Below, piece after piece: positions 9,022 to 27,586 of a stretch of DNA of 56,198 nucleotides. The number at the start of each line of letters is the position of its first letter. Position 1 is the stretch's first letter. The notes under the pieces were generated by a model. It made no database searches and was not told the origin of the DNA. It saw only the letters and a program-made list of their open reading frames with translations. Both the position numbers and the translations under genes were made by a program. This stretch comes from an uncultured archaeon. GTDB taxonomy: Archaea > Iainarchaeota > Iainarchaeia > Iainarchaeales > GCA-2688035. The stretch spans positions 1 through 56,198 of the forward strand of contig CAZMUN010000003.1 in assembly GCA_964569815.1 (NCBI GenBank), read 5' to 3'.

Positions 9022-9055
9022 AAAAAATGCGCCCCAAAATGTTTCTTGCACAAAA

Positions 9056-9090
9056 TTTATTAAATAGGAAACTATTCTATTAATCAAAAA
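9056..9090 (+). promoter_or_regulatory. Promoter block of giant gene 1 (copy 1 of a duplicated upstream element)
   Basis: TTTATTAAATAGGAAACTATTCTATTAATCAAAAA. It shares TTTATTAA and an identical 16-mer, GAAACTATTCTATTAA (9068-9083), with the region upstream of giant gene 2. The 16-mer ends 32 nt before ATG 9116. Confidence 0.5.
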
Positions 9091-9115
9091 TAACCTTAAT
9101 ACAGGATTGAACAAA

Positions 9116-12100
9116 ATGGACCTTGGTCTTGGCAGAAGCCTTTTTGAAAACCTTGTTGAAAAAGCAAAACAAGGCTATTTTTTCTTTGAGGACCGCTACT
9201 ATGGCATCCTTGACAAGATAAACGAGCATGTTCCTGTATACAAAGCAGTTGACCCAATTGACCGCGTTGTTCCCTCTTTTATAGTCTTTATTGCACTCCT
9301 TCTCACAGTTTTCGTTTTTTTTCTTTTACTGGCAATGCCTCAGGCAGCCCTTCTTTCCACGATTCGTGCGGTAAACGAAAGAGGCAACCCTTTGGAAAGC
9401 GTAAAAGTATCTGTCCTTTTGGAAGGCCAAAAGCTTGAACTTGAAACAGATGCCTTTGGCGAAACAGCGCTAAGCCTTCCGACAAGCGAGGTTTCTGCAG
9501 ACGTTGTTCTCTCCAAAGAAGATTTTCTGGAATTGTCAAAAACAGTTACCCTTAAGGCAAACGAGGTAACCGAATTCGTGCTTTCAAAAAGGGCCCTTTC
9601 CCTTCAGCCGAAAACATACTCCATTTACTTGGTTGACAGCGTTTCACAGCAGCTGGTAAAAAGGCCAGCTGAAATAAGGTTTTCCTGCTCAACAGGGGCA
9701 ACCCCCCCTTCAAAGGTTGCAGGCTCAAGCGGCGAATTCAAAAACATTGGGATATCAAGCGTTTGCGGAACCCTGGTTGCAAACATTTCAGCCGAAGGCT
9801 ACGAACCAGTGTCAAGCCATCCAATCAAAAAAGACCCCACCTACGTAAAGCTTGACCCCCTTAACAAAACCACGGAAATAAATGTTTTGGTAAAAGACCA
9901 TCTTGGCTTAGGGGTTGCAGGTTCAAGCGTAAAGCTCTTTGAAGATGACCTGCTGTCGGACCAGCTTGTTACAGACGGAAGCGGTACAGGCCTTTTTGAA
10001 AACGTCGGTCCTGGAACCTATTCCATTACTGCGTCACACTCAGACGGCAGGTATGCAGAAAGAACAGGCATTGTTGTAAGGCCTGGAATGCCACAGTCAA
10101 TCATCCTTAGTTTTGAAGAACTGGTTGAAGGAAGCAAAATATTCATGCATTTGCTTGATGTCTCAACCAAAGGAAATGTTTCAGATGCATCCATTTTCAT
10201 TTATTCAAACGACAAGCTTCTTTATTCAACTTCCAGCGATTTTTACGGCAAGGCTGAGCAGCCAGTAGACGGAAACCTTTCATTCATGGCAGTCATAAGG
10301 CACCCTGATTATTTGACGAAAATAGTTCCAGAGGTATGGGTCTTGGACGCATCCCAGGAAACACCGCAGAGCATTAACATGGCCCGTTCCACTGCAAGCA
10401 ACAACGGAAAGGCTTACGTTAGCGTAACAGACTTTGAGGCCCAGGAGCCGGTGGAAGATGCAACAGTTTTCCTTTTCGATTCCGAATTCCCAAAACTAGT
10501 CTTGAATTACCCTTCCGGCAGCACAAACGCAGACGGAAACCTTTTCATTGAAAACCTTCCGGCCTCAACCTATTTTGCAAAAGCAAAGAAAGGCGACACC
10601 GAAGGGCAAAGCGATGAAAAACAGCTGAGTGAAGGCGGCCTGATTTCCCTGCCTGTTGTGTTGGTTTTATCTGAAGGGGGCGTTGAAGTCACGGTTTTGG
10701 AAAAAAGCACAGGCCTTCCCATAGCTGGCGCAGAAGCAAAAATATTTGACTTTTCAAATGACGAATTGCTTGAATCGGGCCAAACGGATATGGATGGTGT
10801 TTTTGTTTCAAGAAAATTCAAGTCAAACAAAACCGTTTACGTAAAGGCTTCCAAGGAAAGCTACCTGAGTGAAGTAAGCGTGCCTGTCCCAATAATTGGC
10901 AAGGCGACGCAGGAAATCTCAATGCATTTAGCCAGCAAAAGCGACATAGACCCTGAAAAAAATATTGCCCTTTCCCTTGAAGGGGTTTATGAAGACCTTG
11001 AAACAGAAAGGCCTGCCTCAACAATTGAATCAGGGCAGCGCTACTACCTGAAATTTGGAATCGCGCTTCCAAAAGACGCAAACTACTCAAATTTAGGCCA
11101 TCATTTGCGCGTAGGCCCGGAAAGCCAGGCCCAATACCCTGAAACTTTGGGGCACGAGCTTTTCCTTGCAAGGCTTTTGGCAGACCAAAGCAGGGCCTCG
11201 CCCCAAGCCTCAACCATCTTCAGCGCCTGCTACGGCCCCCTGGACCTTTTCTCAAATCCATGTGTTTCAGATTCAGCTTCAAAGCAGGCCAACACACTCT
11301 GGCAGTTCCCTGACCCAGAGTCAAGCTACACCCTGGTCTTAAAGCTTGAAACCGAGCAATTCCTTGACGACGGAACAGAAATAGAGCTTAGATACAAAGG
11401 CAAGGCCGTTGTAGACGGACAGGCCTTTGAAACAGAAGAATTCCTGAAGAAATTCAAAATAGGGGAAACCATCTGCACGCCAAAGGTAGACTGCCCGCCA
11501 ATCGTTTGGCGGTTCTGGCTTCAAGGCCTGGAAGAAGAAAAGCAGCCGATTACAAACTTTGCTGAAGACGAAAAAATAGCCCTTCTTGAAAACACCACTT
11601 ACACGCTTTTCTATGAAGCCAGAAACACAAGCGGCTTTGACCTGACAGCAACTCTCGGCATCTCAAACAAAGGCCCTGAAGGCCCTGTTGAAATAAGCCC
11701 TGGCACAGGCTTTTCAGAAAAGAGCTTTTCAGCAGACACCGTTACAGAAACAGGTTCACCCGCAGCCCTGAAAGCAGTCAAAGAAGCAACCCTTACAAAA
11801 ATAGTTTTCCTGCTTAGCTCAACAAGAGGCATTTCGTCCGAGAAAGAGCTTTTCTTTGCAGTTGAGCCAGCCCAAGAGCTCATACTGGAAGTGGTTCCAA
11901 GCCGGCTCAACCCAGGGGACGCCACACAGGTAATAACCGGAACCGTTAAGGCTCCGGACGGAACCCCTTTGCAGGGAGCAAACGTCAACATTTACCTGCC
12001 TACTTCAGACCCGGGCCAGCCCAGGAGGCTTTTCCAAAGCATTGCCACGGATGAAGAAGGGTTTTTCAAAACCGCTGAAAACTTCAACCTTCGCGCCGGG

Positions 12101-13582
12101 CTTCGCGTCAAAGTCGAAGCAACAGCGCCAAGCTTCAAAAAGAAAACTGTTTCGATTCCGGTAAAAGCAGGAAGCTTCTTTGACCCAAGGTATGAATGCA
12201 TTGAAGTTCCATCCGAAGACGGCGGCATTCCCATATTTGAAGACGTAAGGCCGAATGAAACAAGGGCGTTCGTGGTTGAAAACAACTGTGATTTGGATGC
12301 TGAAATCAGGTTCAACACAAAGCTCAAAACCGAGCCCTCTTCCCTAACCATTGCTGCAGGAGGCAAAGCAAATGTTACGGTTACAGCCCAAGAGCCAGAA
12401 GGCGGAGAAAAGGTTTACCTGGGGCAGTACCCTGTTTTCCTAAAAGCAAAGCTTGCAGGCGATGTCAGATTCGTAAGCGCCTTAAAGGCTATGATGATTA
12501 TCACAGACCCTGACGGAAGCTGCTTCAGCATAAACAAAACCAGCTTCAACCTTGCAGACAGCCCTGAAGACTCCGGCATTATAACAAATTCGTGCGCTGT
12601 AGAATTCAATGACGCCTGGTCTCCAGAGCTAGCCCTGGATTCTTTCAAGGCAATAATTGAAAGAAACGACATTGAAATTCCAGACCTTGTTTATTTCCCC
12701 TGGGGGGTAAAAGCCGACATTGAATCAGGAACGCCTGTAGCTGCTTCCGGCCAGCAGCCAACAAGCGAAGGATGGCTTGAACTCAACATTCCAACAGGCA
12801 CCCAAACCGGGACCACAATAGATGAATACATAACCCTTGACTTCGGCTTCGAAGACCTGAAAAACGCGGATTCACTGCAATTCGAGGCCATAATCCATGA
12901 CCGCAACTGCCTTCCCTCAGAACACTTTAGGGACTCTTACGTTAATTCAAACTCGATAACCATTGCCTCAGGCGGTTCAAAGCAACAGGTAAGCATACCC
13001 TGTTCAGAGCAAAGGTGCACTTGGGAGGAAAGCGGCTGCACTTATAGCGTTGAGCGATGCAAAAGCCTCCACCCCTGCTGGCGGGGAACCTTTGAGGCAA
13101 GCATAAGCCCGGCTGCAGAATCCATAGAAAGCATAACCATTCCTGTTTACAACAAAGACAATGAAGGATTCCTTTTCCTCAACCTTCACGGCGAAATCAT
13201 TAACCAGAACATGCAGTTTGACATAGGCTACGAGCACACACAATTAGAGCTTGGGCCCCAGCCGAATGGAAGATTCAATTCCGCCATTTTTCCGGTAAGA
13301 AACTTTGGCTTTGTTTTAGGGGAAATAAACAAGTCGCTCACAGAAAAGCTTGGAGAAAGCGTCCGCGGAATAATAGATGTCAATTACACGGTCTACAGCG
13401 ACAACCCGGACGTGGAAGTATGGCTGGTTGATGACACAGTGTATGGAAAATATGTAGGCATTGACACAGACGAAAATCCAAGTGAAACGCCTTTCACGAT
13501 AAGAAACCTTTTCCTAAACACAACAGAATACAACTTAATCCTTGTCGACGATTACGTAAACCATTTGAAAGGAGGCTCTTGA
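9116..13582 (+). CDS. Giant membrane-anchored surface protein 1 (1488 aa from ATG 9116): N-terminal cytoplasmic module, one TM helix, CarboxypepD_reg/Ig-like repeats
   Basis: ATG 9116 aligns with the start of the paralogue at 17790. Conserved GYFFFEDRYYGILDKINEHVPVYKAVDPIDRVVPSF is followed by the TM helix FIVFIALLLTVFVFFLLLA. Repeats of the type GSSVKLFEDDLLSDQLVTDGSGTGLFENVGPGTYSITASHSDGRY match the carboxypeptidase-regulatory-like fold pattern. Confidence 0.8.
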   Translation: MDLGLGRSLFENLVEKAKQGYFFFEDRYYGILDKINEHVPVYKAVDPIDRVVPSFIVFIALLLTVFVFFLLLAMPQAALLSTIRAVNERGNPLESVKVSVLLEGQKLELETDAFGETALSLPTSEVSADVVLSKEDFLELSKTVTLKANEVTEFVLSKRALSLQPKTYSIYLVDSVSQQLVKRPAEIRFSCSTGATPPSKVAGSSGEFKNIGISSVCGTLVANISAEGYEPVSSHPIKKDPTYVKLDPLNKTTEINVLVKDHLGLGVAGSSVKLFEDDLLSDQLVTDGSGTGLFENVGPGTYSITASHSDGRYAERTGIVVRPGMPQSIILSFEELVEGSKIFMHLLDVSTKGNVSDASIFIYSNDKLLYSTSSDFYGKAEQPVDGNLSFMAVIRHPDYLTKIVPEVWVLDASQETPQSINMARSTASNNGKAYVSVTDFEAQEPVEDATVFLFDSEFPKLVLNYPSGSTNADGNLFIENLPASTYFAKAKKGDTEGQSDEKQLSEGGLISLPVVLVLSEGGVEVTVLEKSTGLPIAGAEAKIFDFSNDELLESGQTDMDGVFVSRKFKSNKTVYVKASKESYLSEVSVPVPIIGKATQEISMHLASKSDIDPEKNIALSLEGVYEDLETERPASTIESGQRYYLKFGIALPKDANYSNLGHHLRVGPESQAQYPETLGHELFLARLLADQSRASPQASTIFSACYGPLDLFSNPCVSDSASKQANTLWQFPDPESSYTLVLKLETEQFLDDGTEIELRYKGKAVVDGQAFETEEFLKKFKIGETICTPKVDCPPIVWRFWLQGLEEEKQPITNFAEDEKIALLENTTYTLFYEARNTSGFDLTATLGISNKGPEGPVEISPGTGFSEKSFSADTVTETGSPAALKAVKEATLTKIVFLLSSTRGISSEKELFFAVEPAQELILEVVPSRLNPGDATQVITGTVKAPDGTPLQGANVNIYLPTSDPGQPRRLFQSIATDEEGFFKTAENFNLRAGLRVKVEATAPSFKKKTVSIPVKAGSFFDPRYECIEVPSEDGGIPIFEDVRPNETRAFVVENNCDLDAEIRFNTKLKTEPSSLTIAAGGKANVTVTAQEPEGGEKVYLGQYPVFLKAKLAGDVRFVSALKAMMIITDPDGSCFSINKTSFNLADSPEDSGIITNSCAVEFNDAWSPELALDSFKAIIERNDIEIPDLVYFPWGVKADIESGTPVAASGQQPTSEGWLELNIPTGTQTGTTIDEYITLDFGFEDLKNADSLQFEAIIHDRNCLPSEHFRDSYVNSNSITIASGGSKQQVSIPCSEQRCTWEESGCTYSVERCKSLHPCWRGTFEASISPAAESIESITIPVYNKDNEGFLFLNLHGEIINQNMQFDIGYEHTQLELGPQPNGRFNSAIFPVRNFGFVLGEINKSLTEKLGESVRGIIDVNYTVYSDNPDVEVWLVDDTVYGKYVGIDTDENPSETPFTIRNLFLNTTEYNLILVDDYVNHLKGGS

Positions 13583-15334
13583 ATGAAAAAAGTCAACGCA
13601 TTTTTGGTGTTTTTCACACTGGCAATGCTTCCTTTTGCAGCTGCGGAAAGCAACCTTTTCTACAAAGGCAGCCTCTACCTCGGCCTTGAAGACGAAAGCC
13701 TTTCCCAGGGCGAGACCCTGAAAGCAAACGTAACACTGGTAAGCCTGGAAGAATTCCCGATAGCGGAAGCATACCTTGTCTTTGAAGTGGTACAAGGAAA
13801 AGACTATTACTACCCGACACAGCATTCTGATTCAGACAACATTATTTGGGAAGAAAAAGTTTCAGGGCTAAACCTGGCCCCCAACGGAAAAACATCAAGA
13901 GAGTTTTCATTCAATCTGCCAGAAAACCTTAAGCCAGGGGACTACAGGCTTGACGTTTACGCAAAAACAAAAAAGACCCAGATTGTGGGTGCACCACACA
14001 TATTTGCTTCGCCTACATCTGCAAACTTCACTGTAACAGGAAGCCAGGGAAGCTTTCCTGAAGCCAAAATATTGAGGACAAAAACAATGTTCCACCAATT
14101 CTTGGGGCCTGTTGGGCCAGGCATAGGGCCTGGCGAGGAAATTGAAAACGAGGTCTTCCTGCTCAACGAGTCGGGAAAAAGCCTTTCAAATGCGGAACTT
14201 TTTGTAGGCTTGTGCGAATGGGATGACACCGCTTGTGGCAAATGGCTTTCAACAGCCGCCGAAAAACTTTCTCTTAAGGCAGGTGAAGAAAAAAGCCTTA
14301 ACGTAAAACTTGTTGCGCCTGAAATGCCTGACGCATACGCAATAAGAATAGAACTAAGAAACAGCTCTGGAGAGCTTTTATCGCTTTACAGGAACAGAAG
14401 CATAGTCTATGGGCCCACTGCCAAAATACACCAGCTCAACGTCAACGACTACAAGTTTGAAGAAGCCGACGAAATAGAGCTTTCCATGCTTTTGGGGCCA
14501 AGCCCTGACCACTACAAATGGCCTGTCTTTGAAGCCTTTAAAATAAAAGCATGGGTTGAAGACATGACAGACAAAAACAAAGTGCTTGTTTCGGAAGAAA
14601 AAACCATTGAATCAATTTCAGCCCCAGAATTCCCAATGCATTCCTTCAGCTTCCAGGCCCCAAAAGAGCTCACCCTGTTCAAAGTCTGCGGCCTTGTTGA
14701 AAAGCAAAACCAAGAGCACGAAAAATACTGCTATGTGGTTGACGCAAGCAAGTTCCCTGAAAAGGAAGCCGGTGAAGAAATTGAAGTCAAATGGGATTAC
14801 GATTCCGAGGAAAAAGCCCTTAACCTGGCTTTCTCAACACAGCCTCAAGGCTTGGAAATAGATGCCGCTTTCCTCTTAATGGACTTCTCAGCAGGCGTTC
14901 TTGTAGAACACCAGAACCTTAAAGGCAAAAGCCCGCAAAACGCTGTTTTAAGGGTGCCGGCAAAAAACTATTTGCTGCTTTTAAACAACTTTTCCACAGG
15001 CAGGCAAACAAAAATAAGCATTTCCCTTGACTCGGCAGGCCTTGCCCCAACCCTAAGGCCCTGTTCCAAGATGTCAGGCCAAAAATGCACAGAAGAACAG
15101 GTCTGCGACAACCCAGTGCCAAGCTCCGATTCCCCACTATGCTGCCTGACAAAATGCCGCGACCGCATTTCAAACCAGCCAAAACCAAATCCAATGGCTT
15201 TCCTTTACCATTACCTTATTCCTGCAATAGCCGCAATTCTCATTATCGTACTTGTTGCAGCCCTTTTAAACGCAAGGCCCAGAAGAAGAGAAAAAAAAGT
15301 GGTAGGTGAAATAGTTGACAAATACTTCAAGTAA
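13583..15334 (+). CDS. Secreted, C-terminally anchored protein (583 aa) with CARDB-like repeats and a Cys-rich stalk
   Basis: ATG immediately follows the upstream TGA (13580-13582), with GGAGG 7 nt upstream. Signal peptide MKKVNAFLVFFTLAMLPFAAA. Cys-rich stretch CSKMSGQKCTEEQVCDNPVPSSDSPLCCLTKC, then the TM helix LIPAIAAILIIVLVAALL and a basic tail. Confidence 0.7.
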   Translation: MKKVNAFLVFFTLAMLPFAAAESNLFYKGSLYLGLEDESLSQGETLKANVTLVSLEEFPIAEAYLVFEVVQGKDYYYPTQHSDSDNIIWEEKVSGLNLAPNGKTSREFSFNLPENLKPGDYRLDVYAKTKKTQIVGAPHIFASPTSANFTVTGSQGSFPEAKILRTKTMFHQFLGPVGPGIGPGEEIENEVFLLNESGKSLSNAELFVGLCEWDDTACGKWLSTAAEKLSLKAGEEKSLNVKLVAPEMPDAYAIRIELRNSSGELLSLYRNRSIVYGPTAKIHQLNVNDYKFEEADEIELSMLLGPSPDHYKWPVFEAFKIKAWVEDMTDKNKVLVSEEKTIESISAPEFPMHSFSFQAPKELTLFKVCGLVEKQNQEHEKYCYVVDASKFPEKEAGEEIEVKWDYDSEEKALNLAFSTQPQGLEIDAAFLLMDFSAGVLVEHQNLKGKSPQNAVLRVPAKNYLLLLNNFSTGRQTKISISLDSAGLAPTLRPCSKMSGQKCTEEQVCDNPVPSSDSPLCCLTKCRDRISNQPKPNPMAFLYHYLIPAIAAILIIVLVAALLNARPRRREKKVVGEIVDKYFK

Positions 15335-17678
15335 AATCCCTGTTGCGGCAATTACAGCGCTTGCGCTTGTTTTCCTAATCCAAAGCTGCCTTGCACAACA
15401 AATCAACACAGACCCTGGTTCATGCGGCGGATTTGGCGGAGGAGACCACTGCTTTTACAACGCTGACTACGAAACCCTAAGGCAGGACCCAACATCCTTT
15501 ACCTACAGCCTAAGCTTTGACAATCCATTTGCTTCAACCCAAGGAGAAGACGGGAAAACAACTTACATCGTCCCCTTGATGACCACGCTTTCGCTAAGCA
15601 ATTTTTCGACCTATGTAAATGTCTGCATTGACGGCGAGCATTCGACAGGAGTGCATGCAATAGACCTGTTTGTAGACGATGAAAAAGTCGGAGACAACTA
15701 CCGCATTGTCCCAGGCGACAGCTGTTTTGGCGGAGGAAGGTTTTATTCAGGAAACCAAAATCCGGTAGAGTACCTCTTCCAAATTCCAGGCATACACCAT
15801 GTGAAAATTGTTCTTGCAACCAGGAACAACGGAACCTGCGGCGTAATAAGGGAAGAATTCGACGTCATAGTTGTCCAGCCATTGCTTTCAATAAACGGCT
15901 CCTCTTCCCAGCTTGTTTCCTTTGACAAAACCGAAGCCGAAAAAAAGTTTTACATTACGTGGACGGTTTCAAACGTAGGCGGCGTTAGGGCAATAGTTAC
16001 AGGCGCACAAACAACAGGCTGTGAGGCAGCAGGCCTTGAATGCAGCCTGCCGGGCTTTGGCAGAATGGTTGTGGATCCAGGCGAAACACTGCTGATAGTG
16101 GAGGAAGTGAAAGCAACAAGGCCCCCCTCAATGCCTGCTTCAATTCCCCTAAACAAGCTCGGCCTCAAACTGACTTACACAGACGAGTTTGAAGCAAACA
16201 CCCTGCATAAACATTCCCACATTCCTGTTGAAAACGCGCTGCTTTGGAACGAAGAGCAGCGCTTCCACGCGGAGCTCTTCGGCGGCACGCAAAACCATTG
16301 CATTGGCAAAGACGGCCGAATGGGCGGAACAGGCCCTGGCCAAAAGCCCAAAGTCCTGCTCAACTGGGACTGGGACAGAATAGGCTTTGACACCTGCAGC
16401 AAAAAGCAGGAGCAGGGCCTTGATTTCGTGTACTGCGACCCAACACAGTTCAGCATAGCGCTTTTGGAAAGGCTTAATGAAATAAGGGAATACGGAAGCC
16501 AGGGAAAGGTTTCTGACGCAAAAGCCCTTGAAAGCTTCCAGGCCTACCTGATTGGAGACACAATAAACCAGGACTTCAGAAACGACTTCGATTACTATTA
16601 CAGAAACGTTTCGTTCCTAACCCCAACATGGTACTCAAGCCAGGAAAGCCCGTGGTACCTTTACTTCACAGACCCAAACAGGCTTTCATTCCCAAAAGAG
16701 GAAATAACAACAGGGCTTTACGACGTGAAACTGGAATTCGATTTCGAGCAAGACCAGTACGAGTTCTTTTACTCGGAAACAGAGCCAACCGCAACCATAA
16801 AAGTAAGGCTCGCAAAAATCAGGGACCCGCTTACTCCAAACCCTTTCTACTACCTGCCTTTTAACGGCGAAGTTGGCCTAAATGAAGCAAGGGAAATCGA
16901 CAGGCAGGGCTACGGCCTTGGTTTTTCAGGGCCAGAGCTTGCATTAACCTCTTCCGGCGAGGCAATTTCGGCAAAAGGCTCCGGCAAAAAAACCGTTTCC
17001 ACTTCAATTGAAGAGTCTTTTGAAGAAGTAAACATGCTCAACAGGGGCATCGTTCTTTCAGTTTCAAAAGAAGCCGATTCCATAACAATGTCGCCCTCCT
17101 ATGCCACGCCAATAATACTGAAAGCCAATGCTTCAGGCCAGACGGCAGACGCATACTACTCTGTAAGTGACGGGCAAAACATTATTGGTTCGCCTGTCGG
17201 CTATATGGGTCTCTGGACAGGCTTTGCATCCCAGCCAATGGCCTGCGCCAACTTTGACGACACCCCGCTCTATTACAGGATGAATGACAGCAAGGCCTCG
17301 GCAATGCCTGGCATGAGCGAAAACTCTTACGGCTTTAGCTGGGAAGACATTCCTGAGGAAAACCAGGAAGGCGAGGTTTTCATGCAATCCGTGTTTTACG
17401 CGCCATTGCAAAAGGACATGGCTTTAAGAAAGGAAACAGGAATTGACTTGCTTGACCCAAACGGCGGCTCTGACAGCATTTCATTGAATTATTCTTCCAT
17501 GAGCCCGGCCATAGACGCGGTATTCGGCTTGGTTTCTGAGGAAAGGCTCTGCGTGAACTTTGAAGAGAACTCTTTGGACTTCTGGTGGAACGAGCAAAAG
17601 CTTATCGAAGAGCTTGAAACAGTAAAAGAAGCAAACGTTCCAGGGCAAGCAACCTGTTCTGTTGAAGGGCGAACCTAA
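15315..17678 (+). CDS. Secreted protein (787 aa) homologous to the C-terminal module of giant protein 2
   Basis: TTG start 5 nt after AGGTGA, overlapping the upstream gene by 20 nt. Signal peptide IPVAAITALALVFLIQSCLA. Residues from about 320 onward align with the giant-2 C-terminus (KVLLNWDWDRIGFDTC / RVLLDWDWGAITTETC; NPFYYLPFNGEVG / NPFYYLPFNGDVG). Confidence 0.7.
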   Translation: MTNTSSKIPVAAITALALVFLIQSCLAQQINTDPGSCGGFGGGDHCFYNADYETLRQDPTSFTYSLSFDNPFASTQGEDGKTTYIVPLMTTLSLSNFSTYVNVCIDGEHSTGVHAIDLFVDDEKVGDNYRIVPGDSCFGGGRFYSGNQNPVEYLFQIPGIHHVKIVLATRNNGTCGVIREEFDVIVVQPLLSINGSSSQLVSFDKTEAEKKFYITWTVSNVGGVRAIVTGAQTTGCEAAGLECSLPGFGRMVVDPGETLLIVEEVKATRPPSMPASIPLNKLGLKLTYTDEFEANTLHKHSHIPVENALLWNEEQRFHAELFGGTQNHCIGKDGRMGGTGPGQKPKVLLNWDWDRIGFDTCSKKQEQGLDFVYCDPTQFSIALLERLNEIREYGSQGKVSDAKALESFQAYLIGDTINQDFRNDFDYYYRNVSFLTPTWYSSQESPWYLYFTDPNRLSFPKEEITTGLYDVKLEFDFEQDQYEFFYSETEPTATIKVRLAKIRDPLTPNPFYYLPFNGEVGLNEAREIDRQGYGLGFSGPELALTSSGEAISAKGSGKKTVSTSIEESFEEVNMLNRGIVLSVSKEADSITMSPSYATPIILKANASGQTADAYYSVSDGQNIIGSPVGYMGLWTGFASQPMACANFDDTPLYYRMNDSKASAMPGMSENSYGFSWEDIPEENQEGEVFMQSVFYAPLQKDMALRKETGIDLLDPNGGSDSISLNYSSMSPAIDAVFGLVSEERLCVNFEENSLDFWWNEQKLIEELETVKEANVPGQATCSVEGRT

Positions 17679-17723
17679 CCAAAAAGAAGCCTTTTCAAGC
17701 ATCCAAGAAACACCTGCGCAAGC

Positions 17724-17760
17724 TTTATTAATAAAGAAACTATTCTATTAAATGAAAAAA
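17724..17760 (+). promoter_or_regulatory. Promoter block of giant gene 2 (copy 2)
   Basis: TTTATTAATAAAGAAACTATTCTATTAAATGAAAAAA. The identical 16-mer lies at 17736-17751 and ends 38 nt before ATG 17790. Confidence 0.5.
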
Positions 17761-17789
17761 AAACACTTAGTCTAAAAAAGGGTATTTGC

Positions 17790-20700
17790 ATGGAATCGCC
17801 TTTGATAGAGAAGGTCGTGGAAAAAATAAAATCAGGCTACTTTTTCCTAGAAGACCGCTACTACGCAGTTTTAGACAAAATAAACAAGCAGGTTCCAATC
17901 TACAAAGTTGTGGACCCCGTTGACAAGGTTGTTCCGTCTTTTTTGGTCCTGGCTGCAATAATCCTGCTTCTTGCACTATTTTTCGTTTTTATTGCCCAAG
18001 CCGCTGTTCCAATGTCTGCCACTTTAAGAGTTGTTGACAGCAAAGGCGAGTATGTTCCAGGCGTATCAATAGAGCTTTCATCAGAAAGCTTTGATTTTGA
18101 CAGCTTTGAAACAGACGAATTCGGCGAAACAATTGTAAGCCTGCCTAGCCCTAAAATAGATGCTGAAGGCACGTTTACCAAAGAAGGATACCTTGACCTC
18201 AAGAGAACGGTTACCTTAAAAGCCAACAAGTCATCTGAGGTAACGCTGCAGCTAAAGCCATCAGATATAGACCTGCAGCCCAAAGACCTCACCATACGCG
18301 TTTACGACAGCAGAACAAACCAGCCAATAACAAAAAAAGTTATTCTGACATTTGAGTGCAGCAGCGGCGCATTCCCACCGGAAAAACAGGAGGGCACAAC
18401 TGGCCAGTTTGAAGTTGTGAAGCCTGCAAACTGCTCTTCCCTTAGCGCGACAGCGGAAGCAGAAGGCTATGCGAAAAGAAGCAAAACCCTTTCATCTACG
18501 ATAAACACCCTTTACCTTTCCTCTGATTCGGCTCCAACTGAAACAACTGGCAGACTAAATGTTCTTGTAAAAGATTCAGGAAACAACCCCGAGCCAGATG
18601 CAACTGTGCGCGTGATAGACGAAACCACGGACTTGGAAACAGACAGCTCAAGCACCGGCGCCAGCGGAAACGCGCTTATATCAAGCCTTCAACCAGGGCT
18701 TTACACCGTTTCAGTGATAACGCCTGACGGCAGAACAGGCCGCGAAACAGGCATTTATGTGAGAGCAGGCCAAACAGAAACCGTTACCATAACGCTGATA
18801 AGCGCTGCCGATGCACTAAGCAAAAAAATATTTCTGGAAGTAAAGGAAGAAGGGCCTCTGGCTGTGATTTCTGAAGTGCAGGTTTTCATTTACGAAAACG
18901 GTGTGATGCTTGACAGCACTTCCTCTGACAGCTCTGGCATAATAAACAAGAGGATAGTTGAACCAGCTGATGGAGCCACTTACCTAGTGGTTTTGGCACA
19001 TCCTGAGTTCATAACAAAAATCGTTGACGACGTTCCATTAAAAGAGCTCTCAGATGACATCCCAATAGCCATTACCATGACCCGCGCCTCGATGGAGGAC
19101 CCGGCAACGAGCAGCGAAATACTCATAACAGTTGTAGATGAAGAAAGGCTGCCTGTTGAAGACGCCCTTGTAACAGTATATGACTCGGAATACCCTGAAA
19201 TTCCCCTCAAAACGCCTCCTGGCAGAACACTGGAAGACGGAACCTATCTTTTAACAAACCTTGCCCCCGACCGCGAGTATTTTGCAAAAGCAAAGGACCA
19301 GGACGGAACATCAGAAGGGCAGTCAGATACAGGCACGACAACAGCAGGCGAAACCCTAAACCTTGAAGTAATGGTAGTATTGGGACAGGGGGACATAGAA
19401 GTGCTTGTCTTTGACGCGGAAACCGAAAACAAGGCGCCAATACCAAATGCCGAAGTGGAGTTCATTGACGCATACGACTTTCCAACCGTTGTAGCAACCT
19501 GCACAACAGGTCCGGAAGGGTCATGCACTTCAGAGCCGATTCCTGCAGACAAATACGTTGTGGTAAAAGCAAAAGCAACAGGCTTTATGCCCGCTTACTC
19601 GGTTTCAAGGGTTGACATAATAAACCGCAACACGGCAGATGTTGAAATAGGCTTGGAGCACGAGTCAAGCATTCCGCCAGGCATAGGCAAAATGGATATA
19701 AGGTTCAGAAGCTTTTGCCAGGACAGGAAATGTGAAAATTCAGCAGACAAAATCGAATCAGACGAAGCAGGAACCTTAACCTATTATGCTAAATTCGAAC
19801 TCATCTTTGCAGAAGATGCATCATATGAAAACACGGTCCAGCACATAAGAGCAGGCCCTGATTCGGAAATAAGCCTGCCTGCGCCAACAGGCTACAAAAT
19901 CAAGCTAATGAACGCCCACGGCCCTCTCTTTACCTCTGCACCCTTATCAAGCTGCTGGAACAACGATCCAGTGGACCCTTTCACGGACCCGGAGGAATGC
20001 GCAACCCAGCTTGACGCAAAGCAGGTAAACATCTACTACCCTGACCTTGAAGGAAAGCAAATCATTCCAGTTGTAGTGGAATTCTCTGTTGAAGCAGGCT
20101 TGGAAGACGGTGAAGAGCTGGAAATGCACTACAAGGCAAAAACAAGCGTTTCGCAAGAAGACTTCTTCACAGAAAACAAGGTCAAATACTTTTTAATTGA
20201 CGAATTCCTTTGCGAGGGCCAAGACATTGCCTGGAGCTTTTCTTTGATAAACCCGGACGAAAGCGAAGCAGTGCTTGAAACAGGGGAAGATGCCGCCAAT
20301 GAATTGGAGGTGAACCAGGGCCACGCCCTTGCATTTGAACTCTACAACTGCAGCAACCAGGACTTTTCATCAGCTGCCTTAAAAGCAGAGGTCCCTGGAA
20401 CAGACCCTGAAGCCATTTCATTCACTGCAGCAGAGCCATACAGCAAGGGGCCAGTAAACGCTTCAGGAGAAGAAACCTTTTCATTTGCAGCAGACACAAT
20501 ACTGGCAGGCCAGCTCCCGTTTTACACAGTGGCCGAAGCCGACTTAACAAACATAGTTTTCAACTTTTCTGGTGCGGGCCGCGCCTCAACCAAAACAATT
20601 CCATTCAGCATAGAAAGCAACCTAAGGCTACGCGTGCCATTTGTTCCAAGCAAGCTTGCCCCCTACAGGCCGGAAAACCTTTGGGGCGAAGTGCAAGATG

Positions 20701-23700
20701 CTTCCCTGAGGACACCTATAGAAAACGCCCACGTCAAATTGGAAATAGACGGCCAGGACCCACGCGATTTCACAACAGGGGCAGACGGCCAGTTTTCGTT
20801 TGAAAGCATCACAGGCCTTGAAGGCCTAAGCGAAGTAACTCTTACGGTAAGAAAAGCAGGCTACAAGACCTTTGAAGAGACAATTCCGATTGGAACAGAT
20901 TCCGGTGCATTCAACCCGGATTTGGAATGCGTTGGCATAGAAAAAAACACGCAACAGGAGTTTTCACTGCACTTTGTAAGAAACAGTACAGTCCAGTCCC
21001 AAATTAAAGACACTTTTGAAGTAGTAAACGGCTGCGATTCCCCGGTCTTAATACGCATAAACTCCGAGCTCAAAACAGACAAGGCAAACGATTTCGCCTT
21101 GGACCCTGACGAAAAAGAAACAGTAACTGTTTATGCAGAAGCCTGGGAAAACCATCCTGACATGACAATAGGGGAATACGGCGTAATGGTGACAGCCAAG
21201 TACACTGCAGACCCTCCTGCAGCGCCATTCTTTGGGCCTCTGGCAACAGCCACGGTTTATGTAACAGACCCGACAAGCTGCTTCAGGCTAGCAGACCCTG
21301 CAAGCCCAGACAACCCTGATTTGATGAAATCAACCTTCAACATCGTTGAGGGGTCAGATGAAGGGCTGATAGTAAACGAATGCTTTGCCTACTTTGAAGA
21401 CCTGAAAATGCCCCGCCTTGACACAGTCCGCGGATATCTTGCAGTGGAAGACATATTCAAGCTAATATTCAACCCGCCGACCAAGCCAGCCGAAACCATC
21501 GGCAAGCAAAAGATTTTTGACCCAAGCAACCCAGGCTTTGGCGGCTCAGGAATGCTTTCATTCAATGCCATTGACAGCGGAGGCTATGTTTTCGTTGAAT
21601 GGGTTGACTTCCTTATGACAGACGGCGCCCACGATTCCGGCGCCAAACACAGGGTTTGGGCACAAACAAACAGGAGCGTTTGGTCAAATGTAACGTCACA
21701 GCTTCCATTCACAGACGCTCACCGCGGTCCAGCTGCGCCATCAAGCCTGCCTCATCCTGTAATAGACAACGAGGGCTGGGTTGACGTTGACACCTACTAC
21801 AAGTACACGCCAGGAGAGCACCCTTATTCTGATTTGCTTACAAACAACCCAATGTGGCAGGGCCAGCACAATGTATGCAACATAAACCTTACAGGCTTTG
21901 AACCAGGGCTCTCAGAATGCTCTGTGCCAAGCTACTTCCAGGGAAATCCAACCGTGCCATACAAAGTTGGTATGAATGCAAGCAAAATAAGGCTTGAGTC
22001 AAGCCAGCCTGCCACAACCAATGTTTCTGCCGCAAGATGGCAGTATATAAGTACCGATGCAGACCACGATGGCATAATAGACTTCACAATGCAGAACCGC
22101 GGCCTGATGGGCGAAACCTACGCGCTTATCGAAGTTGAGGACACCACCGATGTTCAATTTGTGGTTTCAGGCGAGGAACCCTCAAGCGGCATAACCGTCG
22201 CTTGGGCCTTGAGCAAAAGCTGTAACGTTAAGGGCGAAGGGACGGTAAGCCCTATGCCAGGCCCGCTTGTCGCAACACCGGGCCAGGTAATAGCAATGTC
22301 TGTTGATGAAGCCGTTGGCATTGGGTCGCCAGCAGGCGTATTTGATTCTTTGGAAGCAGTGCCTGTAAATGACTTGCTTCCCGAAAATCCAAAAAACATC
22401 TCTGAGGTTACCCTTGTTCTTAACGAAAACCAGGAGCAATTTAAAATAGAGGACCTTTCGCCAGATTCTACAGAAGAAATGGTTTTAATGGTCTACAGCG
22501 GCGGCGCCTGGGAAAGGGTAGGCCGCTTTGATGCTGAAAATACAGGTGCCAAAACCCTGCAATACACAGACATCCTTTCAGCAGAGCTCATCGCACTCGT
22601 AAACAGCACTAATGCCACCGATATGATGGTCGATGACATATTCATGAACTATTTTATAATAAACACTGAAGAAGCGCAGGTAGGTCAAGGCTCGCTTGCC
22701 ATACCCATAGGCGAAATTTCTGCAGAATCCGACATGCCTCCAGACAACACCGGCCTTGAATGCATTCCAGGCACTTCCCTTTACACTTTGTCCACCGACT
22801 CAACAGAAGCAGTGGTTTACTTCAGCGAAAGCAAGAGCCCGACACATTCAGACCCTTACGGCATTTCAGGAGAACAGCAAAGGATTGTCGCAGCAACCTC
22901 TTCACCTGAACAGGCAGGAAACACCCAAACAGAGCGCTTCCATGTAAGGGTTGTGGGGGAAGCGGCAACCCAGTGCATTTCAGAAAGCGGCATGGTTGGA
23001 AGCACGGGCATTGGCTCAAAGCCCCGCGTTCTCTTAGACTGGGACTGGGGTGCAATAACGACAGAAACCTGCAACGAAGCCAATGAAAGCTTTGTTTACT
23101 GTGACCCTGCGCAATTCACTGCCTCTTTAATAAAAAGGCTTGAAGAAATAAGAACGCTTGCAGCGGATGACATTACAGGCAACCTCATGGAAATCAGGCA
23201 AAAACAGCTCTTCAAAGCCTACCTTATAGAAGATGCTTACACCCCTGACTTCAGGAACGACTTTGTTGAGTTCTATGCAAACCAGTTCCTTGTGGATGAA
23301 ATGGCCAACGAAAAGCATCCTTGGGGCAACTACCTTTTAGACCAGGAAAAGCTTGTCTTAAACACCGAGGCAGCCCGCTCTGAGTCAGACCCGCAAGAGC
23401 CTGACATGGTTGGCGCAGGCCTGCATGAAATATACATAGACTTTGACTTTTCAGGCGACCAGTTTGACTTTTTCTACGTAGAGCCCCAGCCAGACGGCTC
23501 AAACCAAGTTGACTTGCTTGCAAACATCACCGTATACATCACCAAGTTTTCCGATCCAGTAATACAAAACCCATTTTACTACCTGCCCTTCAACGGCGAT
23601 GTAGGCAGGGAAGATGGCGTTCTCCAAAGGGAGGGCTATGGCCTTTCATTTGAAAACGATTCCCAGCCATTGATGGTTGTAGGCGACTTAGCCCAAGGGT

Positions 23701-24473
23701 ATACAACTGTTTCGCCAGAGGGAAGCACTGCAAGGAAAACAGTCCTTACTGAAAACATTTCCGACTTCCTTTTCACCAACCTAGAGGAAAAGGGAATGCT
23801 GTTAAAGGTCGAAAACAACCAGAACGAAATAAAGTTCTCGCCTTCGATTGCAACGCCTGTCTTGGCTGAAACCGTTTCCTCTGAAAACAAGGCAGAGGCA
23901 TTCTACAATTTAAGGGACGGCTCAACAGTTGTTTCAGGGCCTGGCACGCTTGCATCCTGGAGCGGTTCCGGCTCTTCAATGAGAATGGACGGCATCTGCA
24001 CCGACTTCCACGACAACAAGCTCAGGAAAAGCATTGCAGACATGCCTGGAAGCGGCTGTGCCTCAAGCGTTGAAGGCTCTTATGGCTTTTCATATGAGCC
24101 AGCACCAAACGACGAAAAGCTTTACCTTGAAACAGTGTTCTATACGCCGGCATCAAGCGCAGTTCACTTGCGAAAATCCTGTGAAAACGAAAGCAACTTT
24201 TATGCGCCTGACGTTGACGGCATACAAAAAACAACCCAGTTGAGCACGCCTATTTCATTAAGCCTTGAAAACTTTGAAACAAGGGTTGTTTCCTTGGATG
24301 ACCTTGTAAGGCTTGTTGGAGACAGCTATATCTGTGTTTCACAGTCCGAAGACAGCCAATACTTTACCTTCTGGTGGAACCCGCAAAGGGTTCAGGAAAA
24401 TCTTGGCCAGGTAAAAGCAGCAATTTCGAACTGGCCTGAACTCGACTGTTCGGGTGCGCTTTCAAGCGAATAG
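17790..24473 (+). CDS. Giant membrane-anchored surface protein 2 (2227 aa), a fused paralogue of the 9116 and 15315 gene products
   Basis: Uninterrupted 6.7-kb ORF. N-terminus MESPLIEKVVEKIKSGYFFLEDRYYAVLDKINKQVPIYKVVDPVDKVVPSF plus the TM helix LVLAAIILLLALFFVFIA. CarboxypepD_reg-like repeats (ATVRVIDETTDLETDSSSTGASGNALISSLQPGLYTVSVITPDGR). C-terminal module shared with the 787-aa protein. Confidence 0.85.
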   Translation: MESPLIEKVVEKIKSGYFFLEDRYYAVLDKINKQVPIYKVVDPVDKVVPSFLVLAAIILLLALFFVFIAQAAVPMSATLRVVDSKGEYVPGVSIELSSESFDFDSFETDEFGETIVSLPSPKIDAEGTFTKEGYLDLKRTVTLKANKSSEVTLQLKPSDIDLQPKDLTIRVYDSRTNQPITKKVILTFECSSGAFPPEKQEGTTGQFEVVKPANCSSLSATAEAEGYAKRSKTLSSTINTLYLSSDSAPTETTGRLNVLVKDSGNNPEPDATVRVIDETTDLETDSSSTGASGNALISSLQPGLYTVSVITPDGRTGRETGIYVRAGQTETVTITLISAADALSKKIFLEVKEEGPLAVISEVQVFIYENGVMLDSTSSDSSGIINKRIVEPADGATYLVVLAHPEFITKIVDDVPLKELSDDIPIAITMTRASMEDPATSSEILITVVDEERLPVEDALVTVYDSEYPEIPLKTPPGRTLEDGTYLLTNLAPDREYFAKAKDQDGTSEGQSDTGTTTAGETLNLEVMVVLGQGDIEVLVFDAETENKAPIPNAEVEFIDAYDFPTVVATCTTGPEGSCTSEPIPADKYVVVKAKATGFMPAYSVSRVDIINRNTADVEIGLEHESSIPPGIGKMDIRFRSFCQDRKCENSADKIESDEAGTLTYYAKFELIFAEDASYENTVQHIRAGPDSEISLPAPTGYKIKLMNAHGPLFTSAPLSSCWNNDPVDPFTDPEECATQLDAKQVNIYYPDLEGKQIIPVVVEFSVEAGLEDGEELEMHYKAKTSVSQEDFFTENKVKYFLIDEFLCEGQDIAWSFSLINPDESEAVLETGEDAANELEVNQGHALAFELYNCSNQDFSSAALKAEVPGTDPEAISFTAAEPYSKGPVNASGEETFSFAADTILAGQLPFYTVAEADLTNIVFNFSGAGRASTKTIPFSIESNLRLRVPFVPSKLAPYRPENLWGEVQDASLRTPIENAHVKLEIDGQDPRDFTTGADGQFSFESITGLEGLSEVTLTVRKAGYKTFEETIPIGTDSGAFNPDLECVGIEKNTQQEFSLHFVRNSTVQSQIKDTFEVVNGCDSPVLIRINSELKTDKANDFALDPDEKETVTVYAEAWENHPDMTIGEYGVMVTAKYTADPPAAPFFGPLATATVYVTDPTSCFRLADPASPDNPDLMKSTFNIVEGSDEGLIVNECFAYFEDLKMPRLDTVRGYLAVEDIFKLIFNPPTKPAETIGKQKIFDPSNPGFGGSGMLSFNAIDSGGYVFVEWVDFLMTDGAHDSGAKHRVWAQTNRSVWSNVTSQLPFTDAHRGPAAPSSLPHPVIDNEGWVDVDTYYKYTPGEHPYSDLLTNNPMWQGQHNVCNINLTGFEPGLSECSVPSYFQGNPTVPYKVGMNASKIRLESSQPATTNVSAARWQYISTDADHDGIIDFTMQNRGLMGETYALIEVEDTTDVQFVVSGEEPSSGITVAWALSKSCNVKGEGTVSPMPGPLVATPGQVIAMSVDEAVGIGSPAGVFDSLEAVPVNDLLPENPKNISEVTLVLNENQEQFKIEDLSPDSTEEMVLMVYSGGAWERVGRFDAENTGAKTLQYTDILSAELIALVNSTNATDMMVDDIFMNYFIINTEEAQVGQGSLAIPIGEISAESDMPPDNTGLECIPGTSLYTLSTDSTEAVVYFSESKSPTHSDPYGISGEQQRIVAATSSPEQAGNTQTERFHVRVVGEAATQCISESGMVGSTGIGSKPRVLLDWDWGAITTETCNEANESFVYCDPAQFTASLIKRLEEIRTLAADDITGNLMEIRQKQLFKAYLIEDAYTPDFRNDFVEFYANQFLVDEMANEKHPWGNYLLDQEKLVLNTEAARSESDPQEPDMVGAGLHEIYIDFDFSGDQFDFFYVEPQPDGSNQVDLLANITVYITKFSDPVIQNPFYYLPFNGDVGREDGVLQREGYGLSFENDSQPLMVVGDLAQGYTTVSPEGSTARKTVLTENISDFLFTNLEEKGMLLKVENNQNEIKFSPSIATPVLAETVSSENKAEAFYNLRDGSTVVSGPGTLASWSGSGSSMRMDGICTDFHDNKLRKSIADMPGSGCASSVEGSYGFSYEPAPNDEKLYLETVFYTPASSAVHLRKSCENESNFYAPDVDGIQKTTQLSTPISLSLENFETRVVSLDDLVRLVGDSYICVSQSEDSQYFTFWWNPQRVQENLGQVKAAISNWPELDCSGALSSE

Positions 24474-24496: not shown

Positions 24497-25549
24497 ATGT
24501 TTCCCTTTTTTTATCTAAACATTCTGGCAGTATGCCTTCTTGGATTTTTCACATCCTACACAGACCTCAAAAAAGGCATTATAAAAAACAAGGCCGTTTT
24601 TCCTGCAATCGCGTTTGCTTTTCTGCTCACTATCCTAAACGGCTTCAGCTTTTACGCCTTTCTATTAAACGGATTGCTTGCATTTGCTTTGGGTTTGGTT
24701 CTGTGGCTTGCTGGCCTTTGGAGTGCCGGAGACGCAAAGCTTTTCCTTGCCTTTGCCCTGCTTTTTCCCTTGAACATGAATCTTTCTTCCCTTTTTCCAT
24801 CTTTTGGAATATTCATTTATTCCTTTGTCCCAGCCTTTGCCCTGCTTTTAGTGCTTGTTCTCCTCAAAACAAGCTCGAAACAAAAGCTTGATGCCTTGAA
24901 AGAGGCCTTTAAGCCAGGCCTTGTGCTGTCAGTGGCAGTTTTTCTTTTCGCTTTCTACTGGATTCTGGAAAATATGCTGGTCTTTTTTGCAATTCAACTG
25001 GATTTTCTATCCCTTTCATTGCTTTTGTTCCTAATTGTGTCGTTTGTTGAATTCATTCTTCCCAAAAAGTCTGTTTACTTCTTTGCCCTAGTTTCAGCGG
25101 CCTTTGCCTTCATAGAATTTGAGGAAATCCTGACGCCTTTCTTCATTGGCTTTTTTCTCTCATTCCTGCTCATAGTTCTGGTCGTGCTTTTTTTTGTCCT
25201 AAGGCTTGGCTTTGCCTGCTTTGGAAAAGAAAAAAGGCTTTCAGATTTAAGGCCTGGAATGGTTTTGCTTGATTCCATTGTTTTCCGGGGAAAAAGGCTT
25301 GAAAAAAAAGAAGTTCTTCTTCCGTCCTTTGTAAACATTTTTTCGAAAATAAGGGAAAAAAAGGCAGTGGAAACAGGCCCAAAAGGCCTAAGCCAAAAAG
25401 ACATCTCTTTCCTAAAAAAACAGCAAAAGAAAGGCCTTCTTGCATTTGAAACAGTTTCAGTGCAGGAAACACTGCCCTTTGCCCCCATAATTTTTATTGG
25501 AACCCTTCTTTTACTTCTCTCCTACCTGCTTCCATTCTCTCTGTTTTAA
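24497..25549 (+). CDS. A24-family aspartyl peptidase (prepilin/preflagellin peptidase-like) with a C-terminal extension
   Basis: Polytopic membrane protein. First catalytic Asp lies in SYTDLKKGIIKN (D23, codon 24563-24565). Second lies in the GxGD-type motif WSAGDAKLF (D79, codon 24731-24733). An extra Lys-rich soluble segment and a terminal TM helix follow from about residue 240. GAGG lies 6 nt upstream of the ATG, and the gene starts 23 nt after the giant gene stop. Confidence 0.8.
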   Translation: MFPFFYLNILAVCLLGFFTSYTDLKKGIIKNKAVFPAIAFAFLLTILNGFSFYAFLLNGLLAFALGLVLWLAGLWSAGDAKLFLAFALLFPLNMNLSSLFPSFGIFIYSFVPAFALLLVLVLLKTSSKQKLDALKEAFKPGLVLSVAVFLFAFYWILENMLVFFAIQLDFLSLSLLLFLIVSFVEFILPKKSVYFFALVSAAFAFIEFEEILTPFFIGFFLSFLLIVLVVLFFVLRLGFACFGKEKRLSDLRPGMVLLDSIVFRGKRLEKKEVLLPSFVNIFSKIREKKAVETGPKGLSQKDISFLKKQQKKGLLAFETVSVQETLPFAPIIFIGTLLLLLSYLLPFSLF

Positions 25550-25583
25550 AAAATCTTCCCCCCTTGCTTTTTTTGAGCCTATC

Positions 25584-25907
25584 ATGGGAGAAAAAGACAA
25601 CTTTGAAACAGATGAAAAGCAAAGCCTTGTGCTTGTTTCAGTCAACCCCAAAATATTCTCCCTGCCAGTCATTTTTTCGGCAGCCTACTGGATGATGGAC
25701 AAGGCGTTTGTAGTAATAGACGGCAGCCCGGAAACACAAGTTGTGGTTTCATTAAGGCCGAGAAAAAACCAAAAGCTTGAAGAGCTTGCAAGGCTTTTCA
25801 ACGACGAACTCTTAAACTATGCTGTCAACGCAGAAGAAACCAAAAAAACGGAATCCCTGAGAAACGAGCTCATAAAACAGGCCTTTGCAGGCCACTCAGG
25901 CAAATGA
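25584..25907 (+). CDS. HxsD-like small protein (His-Xaa-Ser system accessory protein family)
   Basis: 107 aa from ATG 25584. Pattern VLVSVNPKIFSLPVIFSAAYWMMDKAFVVID ... LFNDELLNYAVNAEE resembles the HxsD family, whose model name I recall as chp_LLNDYxLRE. Located next to the radical SAM pair and the HxS-repeat peptide. Confidence 0.6.
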   Translation: MGEKDNFETDEKQSLVLVSVNPKIFSLPVIFSAAYWMMDKAFVVIDGSPETQVVVSLRPRKNQKLEELARLFNDELLNYAVNAEETKKTESLRNELIKQAFAGHSGK

Positions 25908-26164
25908 TTAAAATGAGGCAAATAACCCTTGACAAAAAGAAAAACACCGCATTCCTAGACCTCAACAGCTTTTTCTACCCCAGGCATCTTCTTCAGTTTG
26001 CCAAAGCCGAGTTTTCAAAAAACGCGCAAATATCCTTTTCACAGGAAAACGGCCGCACAAAAGTTGAAATCAAACCCAAAGGGAAAGCCAGCGCAGAGGA
26101 AACAGCACTGTACTTCTGCAACTATGCTCTGGGCTTGAAGCAGGAGTTTGGAGACCATGCCTGA
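25904..26164 (+). CDS. Second, shorter HxsD-like small protein (tandem paralogue)
   Basis: 86 aa, with an ATGA overlap on the upstream gene. Same layout as the previous protein (FLDLNSFFYPRHLLQFAKAEF ... VEIKPK ... ALYFCNYALGLKQE). Confidence 0.5.
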   Translation: MIKMRQITLDKKKNTAFLDLNSFFYPRHLLQFAKAEFSKNAQISFSQENGRTKVEIKPKGKASAEETALYFCNYALGLKQEFGDHA

Positions 26165-27551: not shown

Positions 27552-27586
27552 TTAAAAACAAGAAAAAGCTATTATATGCTGTTATT

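Follow-up and report, generated by a model that had tools for sequence, protein, structure and literature searches.

The window analysed here is a stretch of 56,198 nucleotides from an uncultured archaeon of the Iainarchaeota, a DPANN phylum (contig CAZMUN010000003.1 of assembly GCA_964569815.1). Four open reading frames (ORFs) on its forward strand, encoding two giant proteins and two smaller ones, are the subject of this study. G1, the split N-protein (9107..13582), has 1491 residues when read from a TTG codon and 1488 when read from the ATG at 9116. It is followed by M583 (13583..15334), an intercalated gene whose product combines a signal peptide, macroglobulin (MG)-like domains, a Cys-rich stalk and a C-terminal transmembrane helix, and by C787 (15315..17678), the split C-protein of 787 residues, with a signal-like N-terminus, a head, a C-module and no membrane anchor. 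The fourth, G2 (17790..24473), is a fused giant of 2227 residues. A Hel308-type helicase gene (5993-8095) flanks the four ORFs upstream. The context is archaeal, as judged from archaeal domain 4 of Hel308, an Arc_PepC match on the peptidase encoded downstream of G2, and genes for PolD DP1/DP2 and Cdc6 farther downstream. An Rfam scan of the window returned no RNA genes, and an NCBIfam scan of G1, M583, C787 and G2 returned no match.

G1 and C787 match colinear, non-overlapping segments of G2, which bears out the sequence-only reading that had described them as a gene fission/fusion pair. By BLASTP, residues 12-1189 of G1 align with residues 5-1222 of G2 at 31.7% identity (E 1e-139 to 1e-151), and residues 313-773 of C787 align with 1713-2211 of G2 at 34.2% identity (E 1e-81); no cross-match beyond these two pairings was obtained among the four proteins, and M583 matched none of the others. 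Comparison by hhalign of profiles built from orthologues gave 32% identity and E 3e-175 for G1 8-1175 against G2 1-1210, and 34-36% identity and E 1e-96 for C787 316-773 against G2 1716-2211, so that the 787-residue protein can indeed be aligned with the G2 C-terminus. The N-module comprises residues 8-1175 of G1 (9128..12631) and 1-1210 of G2, the C-module comprises residues 311-786 of C787 (16245..17672; hidden Markov model (HMM) E 5e-194) and 1711-2225 of G2, and a variable middle occupies residues 1211-1710 of G2. All ten short motif pairs quoted in the earlier reading fall at colinear positions, for example KVLLNWDW at residue 346 of C787 and RVLLDWDW at residue 1746 of G2. The two modules are mutually unrelated (N profile against C profile, E 0.43), and off-diagonal matches derived from repeats in the N-module reached E 1e-9 or weaker in the profile comparison, far under the main diagonal. 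The similarity is thus long, colinear and specific and goes beyond generic Ig-like repeats, the C-module having no Pfam match, and the same two modules are present in joined form in G2 and in separate form in G1 and C787.

The split components cover 1210 + 515 = 1725 of the 2227 residues of G2 (about 77%), or about 80% when a motif island of about 64 residues is included, compared to the composite-coverage criterion of at least 60% quoted in PMC11237513. The other marks of a composite/split family were found as well: the matches are colinear and non-overlapping, the components are non-homologous, and the split is syntenic and recurrent. For the central 500 or so residues of G2, colinearity with the G1 tail and the C787 head could be demonstrated only across one island of about 60 residues. 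The best local pair between G1 tail and G2 middle (TPFTIRNLF... at G1 1461 and IDFTMQNRG... at G2 1430) reached E 0.09 with shallow profiles, and deeper profiles of split tails against G2-clade middles aligned G1 ~1427-1485 with G2 ~1391-1454 (21960..22151), the counterpart of the G1 terminal motif, at E 2e-4 and a probability of 46%. The proposed alignment of G1 with roughly the first 1400 residues of G2 is therefore robust to about residue 1210 and modest beyond it. The C787 head (residues ~30-312, 15402..16250) had no detectable counterpart in G2 in profile comparisons, and its candidate homology with G2 1455-1715 was unsupported (E 0.12-0.41). With no homology detected between the middle of G2 and the C787 head, the agreement between 1488 + 787 = 2275 residues and 2227, which the same reading had pointed out, is close but partly coincidental.

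All giants of the family, even the distant family proteins P0017, P0021 and P0022, open with a conserved segment of about 50 residues, GYFFxEDRYYxxLDKINxxVPIYKxIDPIDKVxPSF. It corresponds to residues 1-57 of G1 (9107-9280) and 1-50 of G2 (17790-17940) and lies directly before a single transmembrane helix (residues 58-76 of G1 and 51-69 of G2). Such length and conservation are unusual in a signal anchor. After the helix, both giants continue with CarboxypepD_reg/prealbumin-like beta-sandwich repeats, and G1 then ends in a variable tail and the terminal motif. PF13620 scored 96.2 bits in G1 and 114.4 bits in G2, against a cutoff of 32.3, in three to four stretches each, and did not match C787 or M583. 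C787 and its orthologues all begin with a hydrophobic, signal-like segment and have no other membrane segment, in agreement with the claim that the C part carries its own signal peptide; signal peptides were judged throughout from hydropathy and alignment. The C-module model (AlphaFold2 predicted local distance difference test score (pLDDT) 83.3; predicted template-modelling score 0.83) is mixed alpha/beta with invariant cysteines. It gave no significant Foldseek match in the PDB or in BFVD (viral), and the module had no sequence relative in the PDB; Pfam matched none of 13 diverse members. On the evidence of sequence searches, the C-module and the N-terminal segment before the helix are specific to Iainarchaeota. 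Many Cys residues and N-glycosylation sequons are present, and the giants, C787 and M583 are all probably extracellular, judging from their predicted features. A search of the literature yielded nothing specific on giant or surface proteins of Iainarchaeota.

The order of the three genes G1, M583 and C787 is conserved. An N-M-C triplet was found in at least eight independent assemblies, with 35-56% protein identity to the window (L001/L002/L010, L003/L004/L009, L008, L084, L085 and L013, where L-numbers denote related loci compared with the window), and the order is partial in L005 and L029. A typical triplet consists of an N protein of about 1500 residues, an M protein of about 590 and a C protein of about 800; the sizes are 1240, 610 and 1204 in L085, and L013 has 1678, a decayed M of 244 and 677. 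L009, from an independent assembly, has the full arrangement of the window, N-M-C-G2-A24. C787 has few close relatives, yet their contigs share the same gene order, and C787 has kept all family-invariant residues of the C-module. In the window, the TGA of G1 abuts the ATG of M583, with AGGAGG upstream of the M583 start, and the TTG start of C787 overlaps the end of M583 by 20 nucleotides, with GGTGA upstream. Abutting or overlapping junctions with Shine-Dalgarno-like motifs are the signature of a translationally coupled operon. Furthermore, since the relatives are only 35-56% identical and have intact frames, they represent independent genomes, and the boundaries at 13582/13583 and 15315/15334, listed earlier as possible assembly or frameshift artefacts, are genuine. 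Further apparently independent splits into two or three ORFs, without an M gene, were seen at L034, L035, L058, L063 and L076. Several of these were seen once only, with overlapping frames, and could be pseudogenes or products of frameshift errors; the single-instance splits (L034, L058, L076 and L063) were left out as evidence.

The terminal motif of about 80 residues in G1 (residues 1407-1489, 13325..13573) would mark the breakpoint of the fission. An HMM of the last ~85 residues of split N proteins matched all of them, except that of L085, within 0-3 residues of the stop codon (independent E-values 1e-27 to 1e-35), and the motif also closes the split N proteins of the M-less L019-type loci. 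The same HMM found matches inside fused giants that were weak but always lay between the N- and C-modules, with independent E-values of 1.3e-4 in L021, 1.7e-4 in L045 (directly before the C-module), 0.0095 in L014 (a member of the G2 clade) and 0.036 in L038. The motifs of G2 and L028 are 50% identical over 38 residues. An iterated HMM of the head domain found it only in split C proteins: it is present in 22 of the 150 best family representatives and in none of the 88 among them that are N+C fusions. Within the loci, every split C protein has it, including those of the L019-type, L085, L029, L011 and L012. A shared terminal motif and a head confined to the split form therefore point to one ancient break after a conserved inter-module element, at about residue 1455 of G2.

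A C-module scan of GTDB species genomes gave 177 loci, almost all from Candidatus Iainarchaeum, Diapherotrites or AR10, and an exhaustive profile search returned 884 clusters (50% identity) at E <= 1e-3 and 558 at E <= 1e-30. Across 76 GTDB loci and other loci, the usual state is a single ORF of 2200-3000 residues with both modules, often in tandem groups of two to four. Such tandem fused giants were seen at L006/L007, L030-L032, L037, L040, L043, L044, L051-L053, L055, L059, L060, L066, L067 and L081. In the distant giants P0017-P0022, the N-module and the C-module occupy the N-terminal and C-terminal ends, respectively, and the C-module of the larger fused group has an insertion of about 150 residues after profile position ~85. 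Five loci (L008, L009, L015, L053 and L064) have giants of the Iainarchaeota type and the Hel308...PolD synteny, yet come from metagenome-assembled genomes (MAGs) titled Chloroflexi/Chloroflexota or Thaumarchaeota; these labels probably reflect binning contamination or mislabelling.

Separate phylogenies of the N- and C-modules had been suggested as the way to polarise the event, and those built here favoured fission. They were neighbour-joining trees with simple corrected distances and midpoint rooting, from HMM-guided alignments (990 columns and 100 bootstraps for the N-module). The N tree places 55 fused giants in a clade of their own (bootstrap 100) that lies outside clade A (bootstrap 90). 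Fused members of clade A include the G2 clade (99), L021 and L028; its split members include the N-M-C clade (82) and a clade (90) of M-less two-gene splits, namely L019, L020, L022 and L025. In the C-module tree, which is poorly resolved, the split C proteins stand beside the G2 clade with weak support. Fused sequences lie both outside and inside clade A, and the fused state is therefore ancestral and the split state derived. These results make fission, rather than fusion, the highly probable polarity, and one ancient fission of a fused giant is the most likely history.

The slot between Hel308 and Cdc6/PolD (5993-40455 in the window) is a variable island in Iainarchaeota with four types of content. 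It holds the triplet alone in L001, L008, L013 and L084; a G2-type giant, the A24 peptidase and radical-SAM genes, but no triplet, in L014, L018, L023, L024, L026, L027 and L017; both the triplet and a G2-type giant in the window and L009; and a two-gene split in L019, L020, L022 and L025. Slot contents across the loci thus indicate that the triplet and G2 are tandem paralogues of long standing that have undergone differential loss. Identity between the ancient paralogues G1/C787 and G2 is about 32-34%, orthologues of each occur across the phylum, and the split is not a recent event in this genome. G1 and G2 also share a promoter-like element of 16 nucleotides, GAAACTATTCTATTAA, which stands at 9068..9083 (+) upstream of G1 and, as an exact second copy, at 17736..17751 (+) upstream of G2. 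It sits 24-39 nucleotides upstream of the two starts and nowhere else in the window, with a chance expectation of 0.01 per window, and M583 and C787 have no copy of their own in a search of the window. A core of 14 nucleotides is also found upstream of the G2-type giant in L014 (4640-4653). The element is probably a shared promoter element of G1 and G2.

M583 had been described as an anchored protein unrelated to the two halves that it separates, and both parts of this description hold: it shows no profile similarity to the giants and has a C-terminal transmembrane helix. Its AlphaFold2 model (pLDDT 86.9) comprises a signal peptide, four to five beta-sandwich domains, the Cys-rich stalk and a transmembrane helix at residues 537-563. 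Foldseek matched it to the MG chains of complement C5, C4 and C3, CD109, A2M and TEP1 (E ~1e-13, probability 1.0, about 500 columns, global template-modelling score ~0.2). Pfam gave faint MG2 and Arrestin_C matches for M583 and the M family and no A2M, TED or CUB match for M583. Because the thioester, CUB and bait elements are absent, M583 is MG-like in domain type only. Membership of the alpha-2-macroglobulin/complement thioester group was ruled out for a protein of 583 residues made up entirely of beta-sandwiches, stalk and transmembrane helix. A second candidate, M583 as a diverged fragment of a giant in a three-way fission, was also rejected, as M profiles of 3 and 32 sequences gave E >= 0.012 against the G2 family, the middles of the G2 clade, the N tails and the C heads, and the M HMM had no match in the giants. 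Nor do the long C proteins of M-less, L019-type loci contain a fused M: the M HMM had no match in them.

The M family forms 37 clusters, down to 30% identity, all from Diapherotrites/Iainarchaeota sources, and M lies between N and C in all contexts examined except L086. In L086 (10001-13890, MAG ARS1307), an M-family gene of 559 residues precedes a gene for a 737-residue protein, with no N gene upstream; the 737-residue protein has a signal peptide and a C-terminal transmembrane helix, no C-module, and a marginal head match (E 4e-4). The M family can therefore occur apart from split giants. M is also not essential to the split state, because it is absent (L019 type) or decayed (L013, 244 residues) in some split lineages. 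These contexts argue for later loss or decay of M in those lineages.

Collectively, these results make it likely that G1/C787 and G2 descend from two ancient tandem paralogues of a giant surface protein family specific to Iainarchaeota, one lineage of which was split by fission. The ancestral fused form would have consisted of the segment of about 50 residues, the membrane helix, an N-module stalk, a variable middle and, at the far end, the Cys-containing C-module of about 500 residues. In one paralogue lineage the gene would have broken once, immediately after the inter-module motif of about 80 residues. The upstream half would have kept the membrane anchor and now ends on the motif; the downstream half, which has a lineage-specific head, would have acquired a signal peptide. 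With the M583 gene between the halves, the three genes would be expressed as one tightly coupled operon. The C-module of G2 would be displayed at the tip of a stalk anchored by the N-terminal helix. C787 appears to be exported on its own, so its retention would have to be non-covalent, and it may be held at the surface by the terminal motif of G1, by its own split-specific head and/or by M583.

Several observations weigh against such a history. The trees are distance-based and midpoint-rooted, and the key nodes of the C-module tree have bootstraps of 6-49. The N-M-C locus L085 pairs with the fused L028 in the N tree (bootstrap 82), lacks the terminal motif and is located elsewhere in its genome; it could reflect a second split event or a misplaced long branch. 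In addition, the G2 middle and the C787 head have no detectable homology, and the head may be an acquisition and not an inherited part. The opposite direction of change would make the N-M-C operon ancestral for the subfamily, the G2-type giants having arisen when M was deleted and N was fused in frame to C. Fusion is reported to be about four times commoner than fission in prokaryotes (PMC11237513), and it would suit the diversity of the M family (its 37 clusters) and the occurrence of N-M-C loci at two places in the tree (the main clade and L085/L029), by which the triplet could be old within clade A. On this account, however, the fused forms in several clade-A lineages call for repeated fusion, or for a fusion that predates the whole family, and all groups outside clade A are fused (the 55 sequences with bootstrap 100). 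The head of the split C proteins is missing from all 88 fused representatives, and the fused giants hold the end motif of the N protein internally. We therefore regard fusion as unlikely.

Duplication followed by complementary truncation and domain accretion could also produce a pair that only mimics fission, and the lack of a counterpart to the C787 head in fused giants, the foreign nature of M583 and the variability of the Hel308-Cdc6 island, with its alternative gene contents, are what such a process would leave behind. It fits poorly with the finding that split N and split C both have the G2 clade as their nearest fused relatives, at comparable divergence (30-32% and 33-36%), that their genes are always adjacent and in the same order, and that the end of the N protein coincides exactly with an element that fused proteins carry internally, which makes truncation distinctly unlikely. 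That the boundaries are mere assembly or frameshift errors, or that the triplet is a disrupted giant gene that no longer functions, is very improbable: the same three intact ORFs recur in the eight or more independent assemblies, and the terminal motif, the signal-like start, the Shine-Dalgarno-like junctions and the invariant C-module residues have all been kept. The concern is a general one, as a screen of archaeal genomes warns that many apparent fissions stem from poor assemblies (PMC11237513), and the set-aside single-instance splits do look like frameshifts or pseudogenes. A single fission in one paralogue lineage thus remains the preferred explanation.

The existence of covalent and non-covalent forms had been taken to imply that the N- and C-modules interact. 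Physical interaction is plausible as a Rosetta-stone inference, strengthened by the conserved operon and the terminal motif, with the split-specific head as further indirect support. For direct contact between G1 and C787, or between M583 and C787, the chances appear about even on present sequence evidence. A more tentative proposal is that the split version is a conserved three-component assembly, in which the terminal motif of the N protein would dock the head of the C protein and M would provide another tether. Evolution would then have singled out the interaction surfaces of a giant envelope or attachment protein family that is confined to one phylum and has no known fold or function, and G1/M583/C787 and G2 would offer a ready comparison of non-covalent and covalent forms in one genome. 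The family may serve as an envelope building block or an adhesin.

Two-component archaeal surface layers are exemplified by SlaA/SlaB of Sulfolobales. By analogy only, M583 and C787 resemble this pair, a C-terminally anchored protein with a beta-sandwich stalk beside a large, secreted protein without an anchor. Unlike SlaA/SlaB, the present system has a further partner, G1, anchored at its N-terminus, and a paralogue, G2, in which the modules are covalently joined; no sequence similarity was found, and there was no PDB sequence match and, for the C-module, no significant Foldseek match in the PDB. The SPEARE proteins of Nanohaloarchaeota are giant, tandemly encoded surface proteins. Giant1-5 of Apilactobacillus kunkeei are giant surface proteins as well (PMC12863079). 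Both sets come from small-genome or symbiotic prokaryotes. Like these, the Iainarchaeota giants exceed 2000 residues, are membrane- or wall-anchored, contain many beta-sandwich domains and occur as tandem paralogues that fill a large share of a small genome, but they share no sequence or domain relationship with them beyond generic Ig-like folds. M583 resembles complement C3/C4/C5, CD109, TEP1 and bacterial alpha-2-macroglobulin in being a predicted string of MG-like beta-sandwiches; compared to those chains, it has no thioester, CUB or bait region, and its 583 residues include the Cys-rich stalk and the C-terminal transmembrane anchor.

Gene fission and fusion are well known, thousands of archaeal families having been catalogued, and the present case is a clean and fairly ordinary one rather than a new phenomenon. 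The archaeal screen of composite and split genes covered 2183 families, with DPANN poorly represented (PMC11237513). As in the Rosetta-stone families of that screen, side-by-side, same-strand, non-homologous split genes match colinear parts of a composite that is more than 60% covered, and the same logic underlies the inference of a functional link. Compared to typical families of this kind, the event took the rarer direction (fission), a conserved unrelated gene lies between the halves, both forms coexist as tandem paralogues in one genome, and the protein is an unannotated DPANN surface protein. These four points make the case unusual, and its value is that of a well-polarised example of fission in DPANN archaea. 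Furthermore, module boundaries are now set for a large family of giants specific to Iainarchaeota (N-module, inter-module motif, and C-module without a known fold), and residues 1407-1489 of G1, the C787 head and the M583 ectodomain are candidate segments of a non-covalent interface. Since the giants take up several percent of genomes of about 1 Mb, these candidates would provide a first handle on a role at the cell surface.

Directly downstream of G2 lies a gene for an A24 prepilin-peptidase-like membrane protein (24497..25549, +; Pfam Peptidase_A24 and Arc_PepC), and in related loci this gene is always directly downstream of G2-type giants. G1 and G2 were considered as class III (type IV pilin-like) substrates of this peptidase and were rejected on inspection, as the leader ends in ...DK(V)VPSF and has no K/R-G/A site.

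Upstream of the giants, the proteins encoded at 114-5936 are unrelated to M, to the head and to the N- and C-modules. Two secreted proteins among them (114-704 and 1268-3463) have C-termini made up of ...PVPE(T/M)P(L/F), a hydrophobic helix and a basic tail, in that order, and these ends resemble an archaeosortase sorting signal of the PEF/PGF-CTERM type; the 731-residue protein also has a weak CARDB match. A His-Xaa-Ser (Hxs) radical-SAM system flanks the giants on both sides, at 8092-9114 (-) and 24497-28846 (+). It includes an HxsC4/HxsC-like gene at 8092-9114 (E 2e-43, under the cutoff), an HxsD-like ORF at ~25497-25907, whose orthologue in L003 has PF27806, an HxsB-like gene at 26148-27551 (362 bits against a cutoff of 370), a candidate HxsA precursor at 27536-27814 with the C-terminal end ...HKHTHMSTRPPPPHASHGSHGSY, and an additional radical-SAM gene at 27866-28846. 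In related genomes, the A24 peptidase and the Hxs cassette always follow the G2-type giants.

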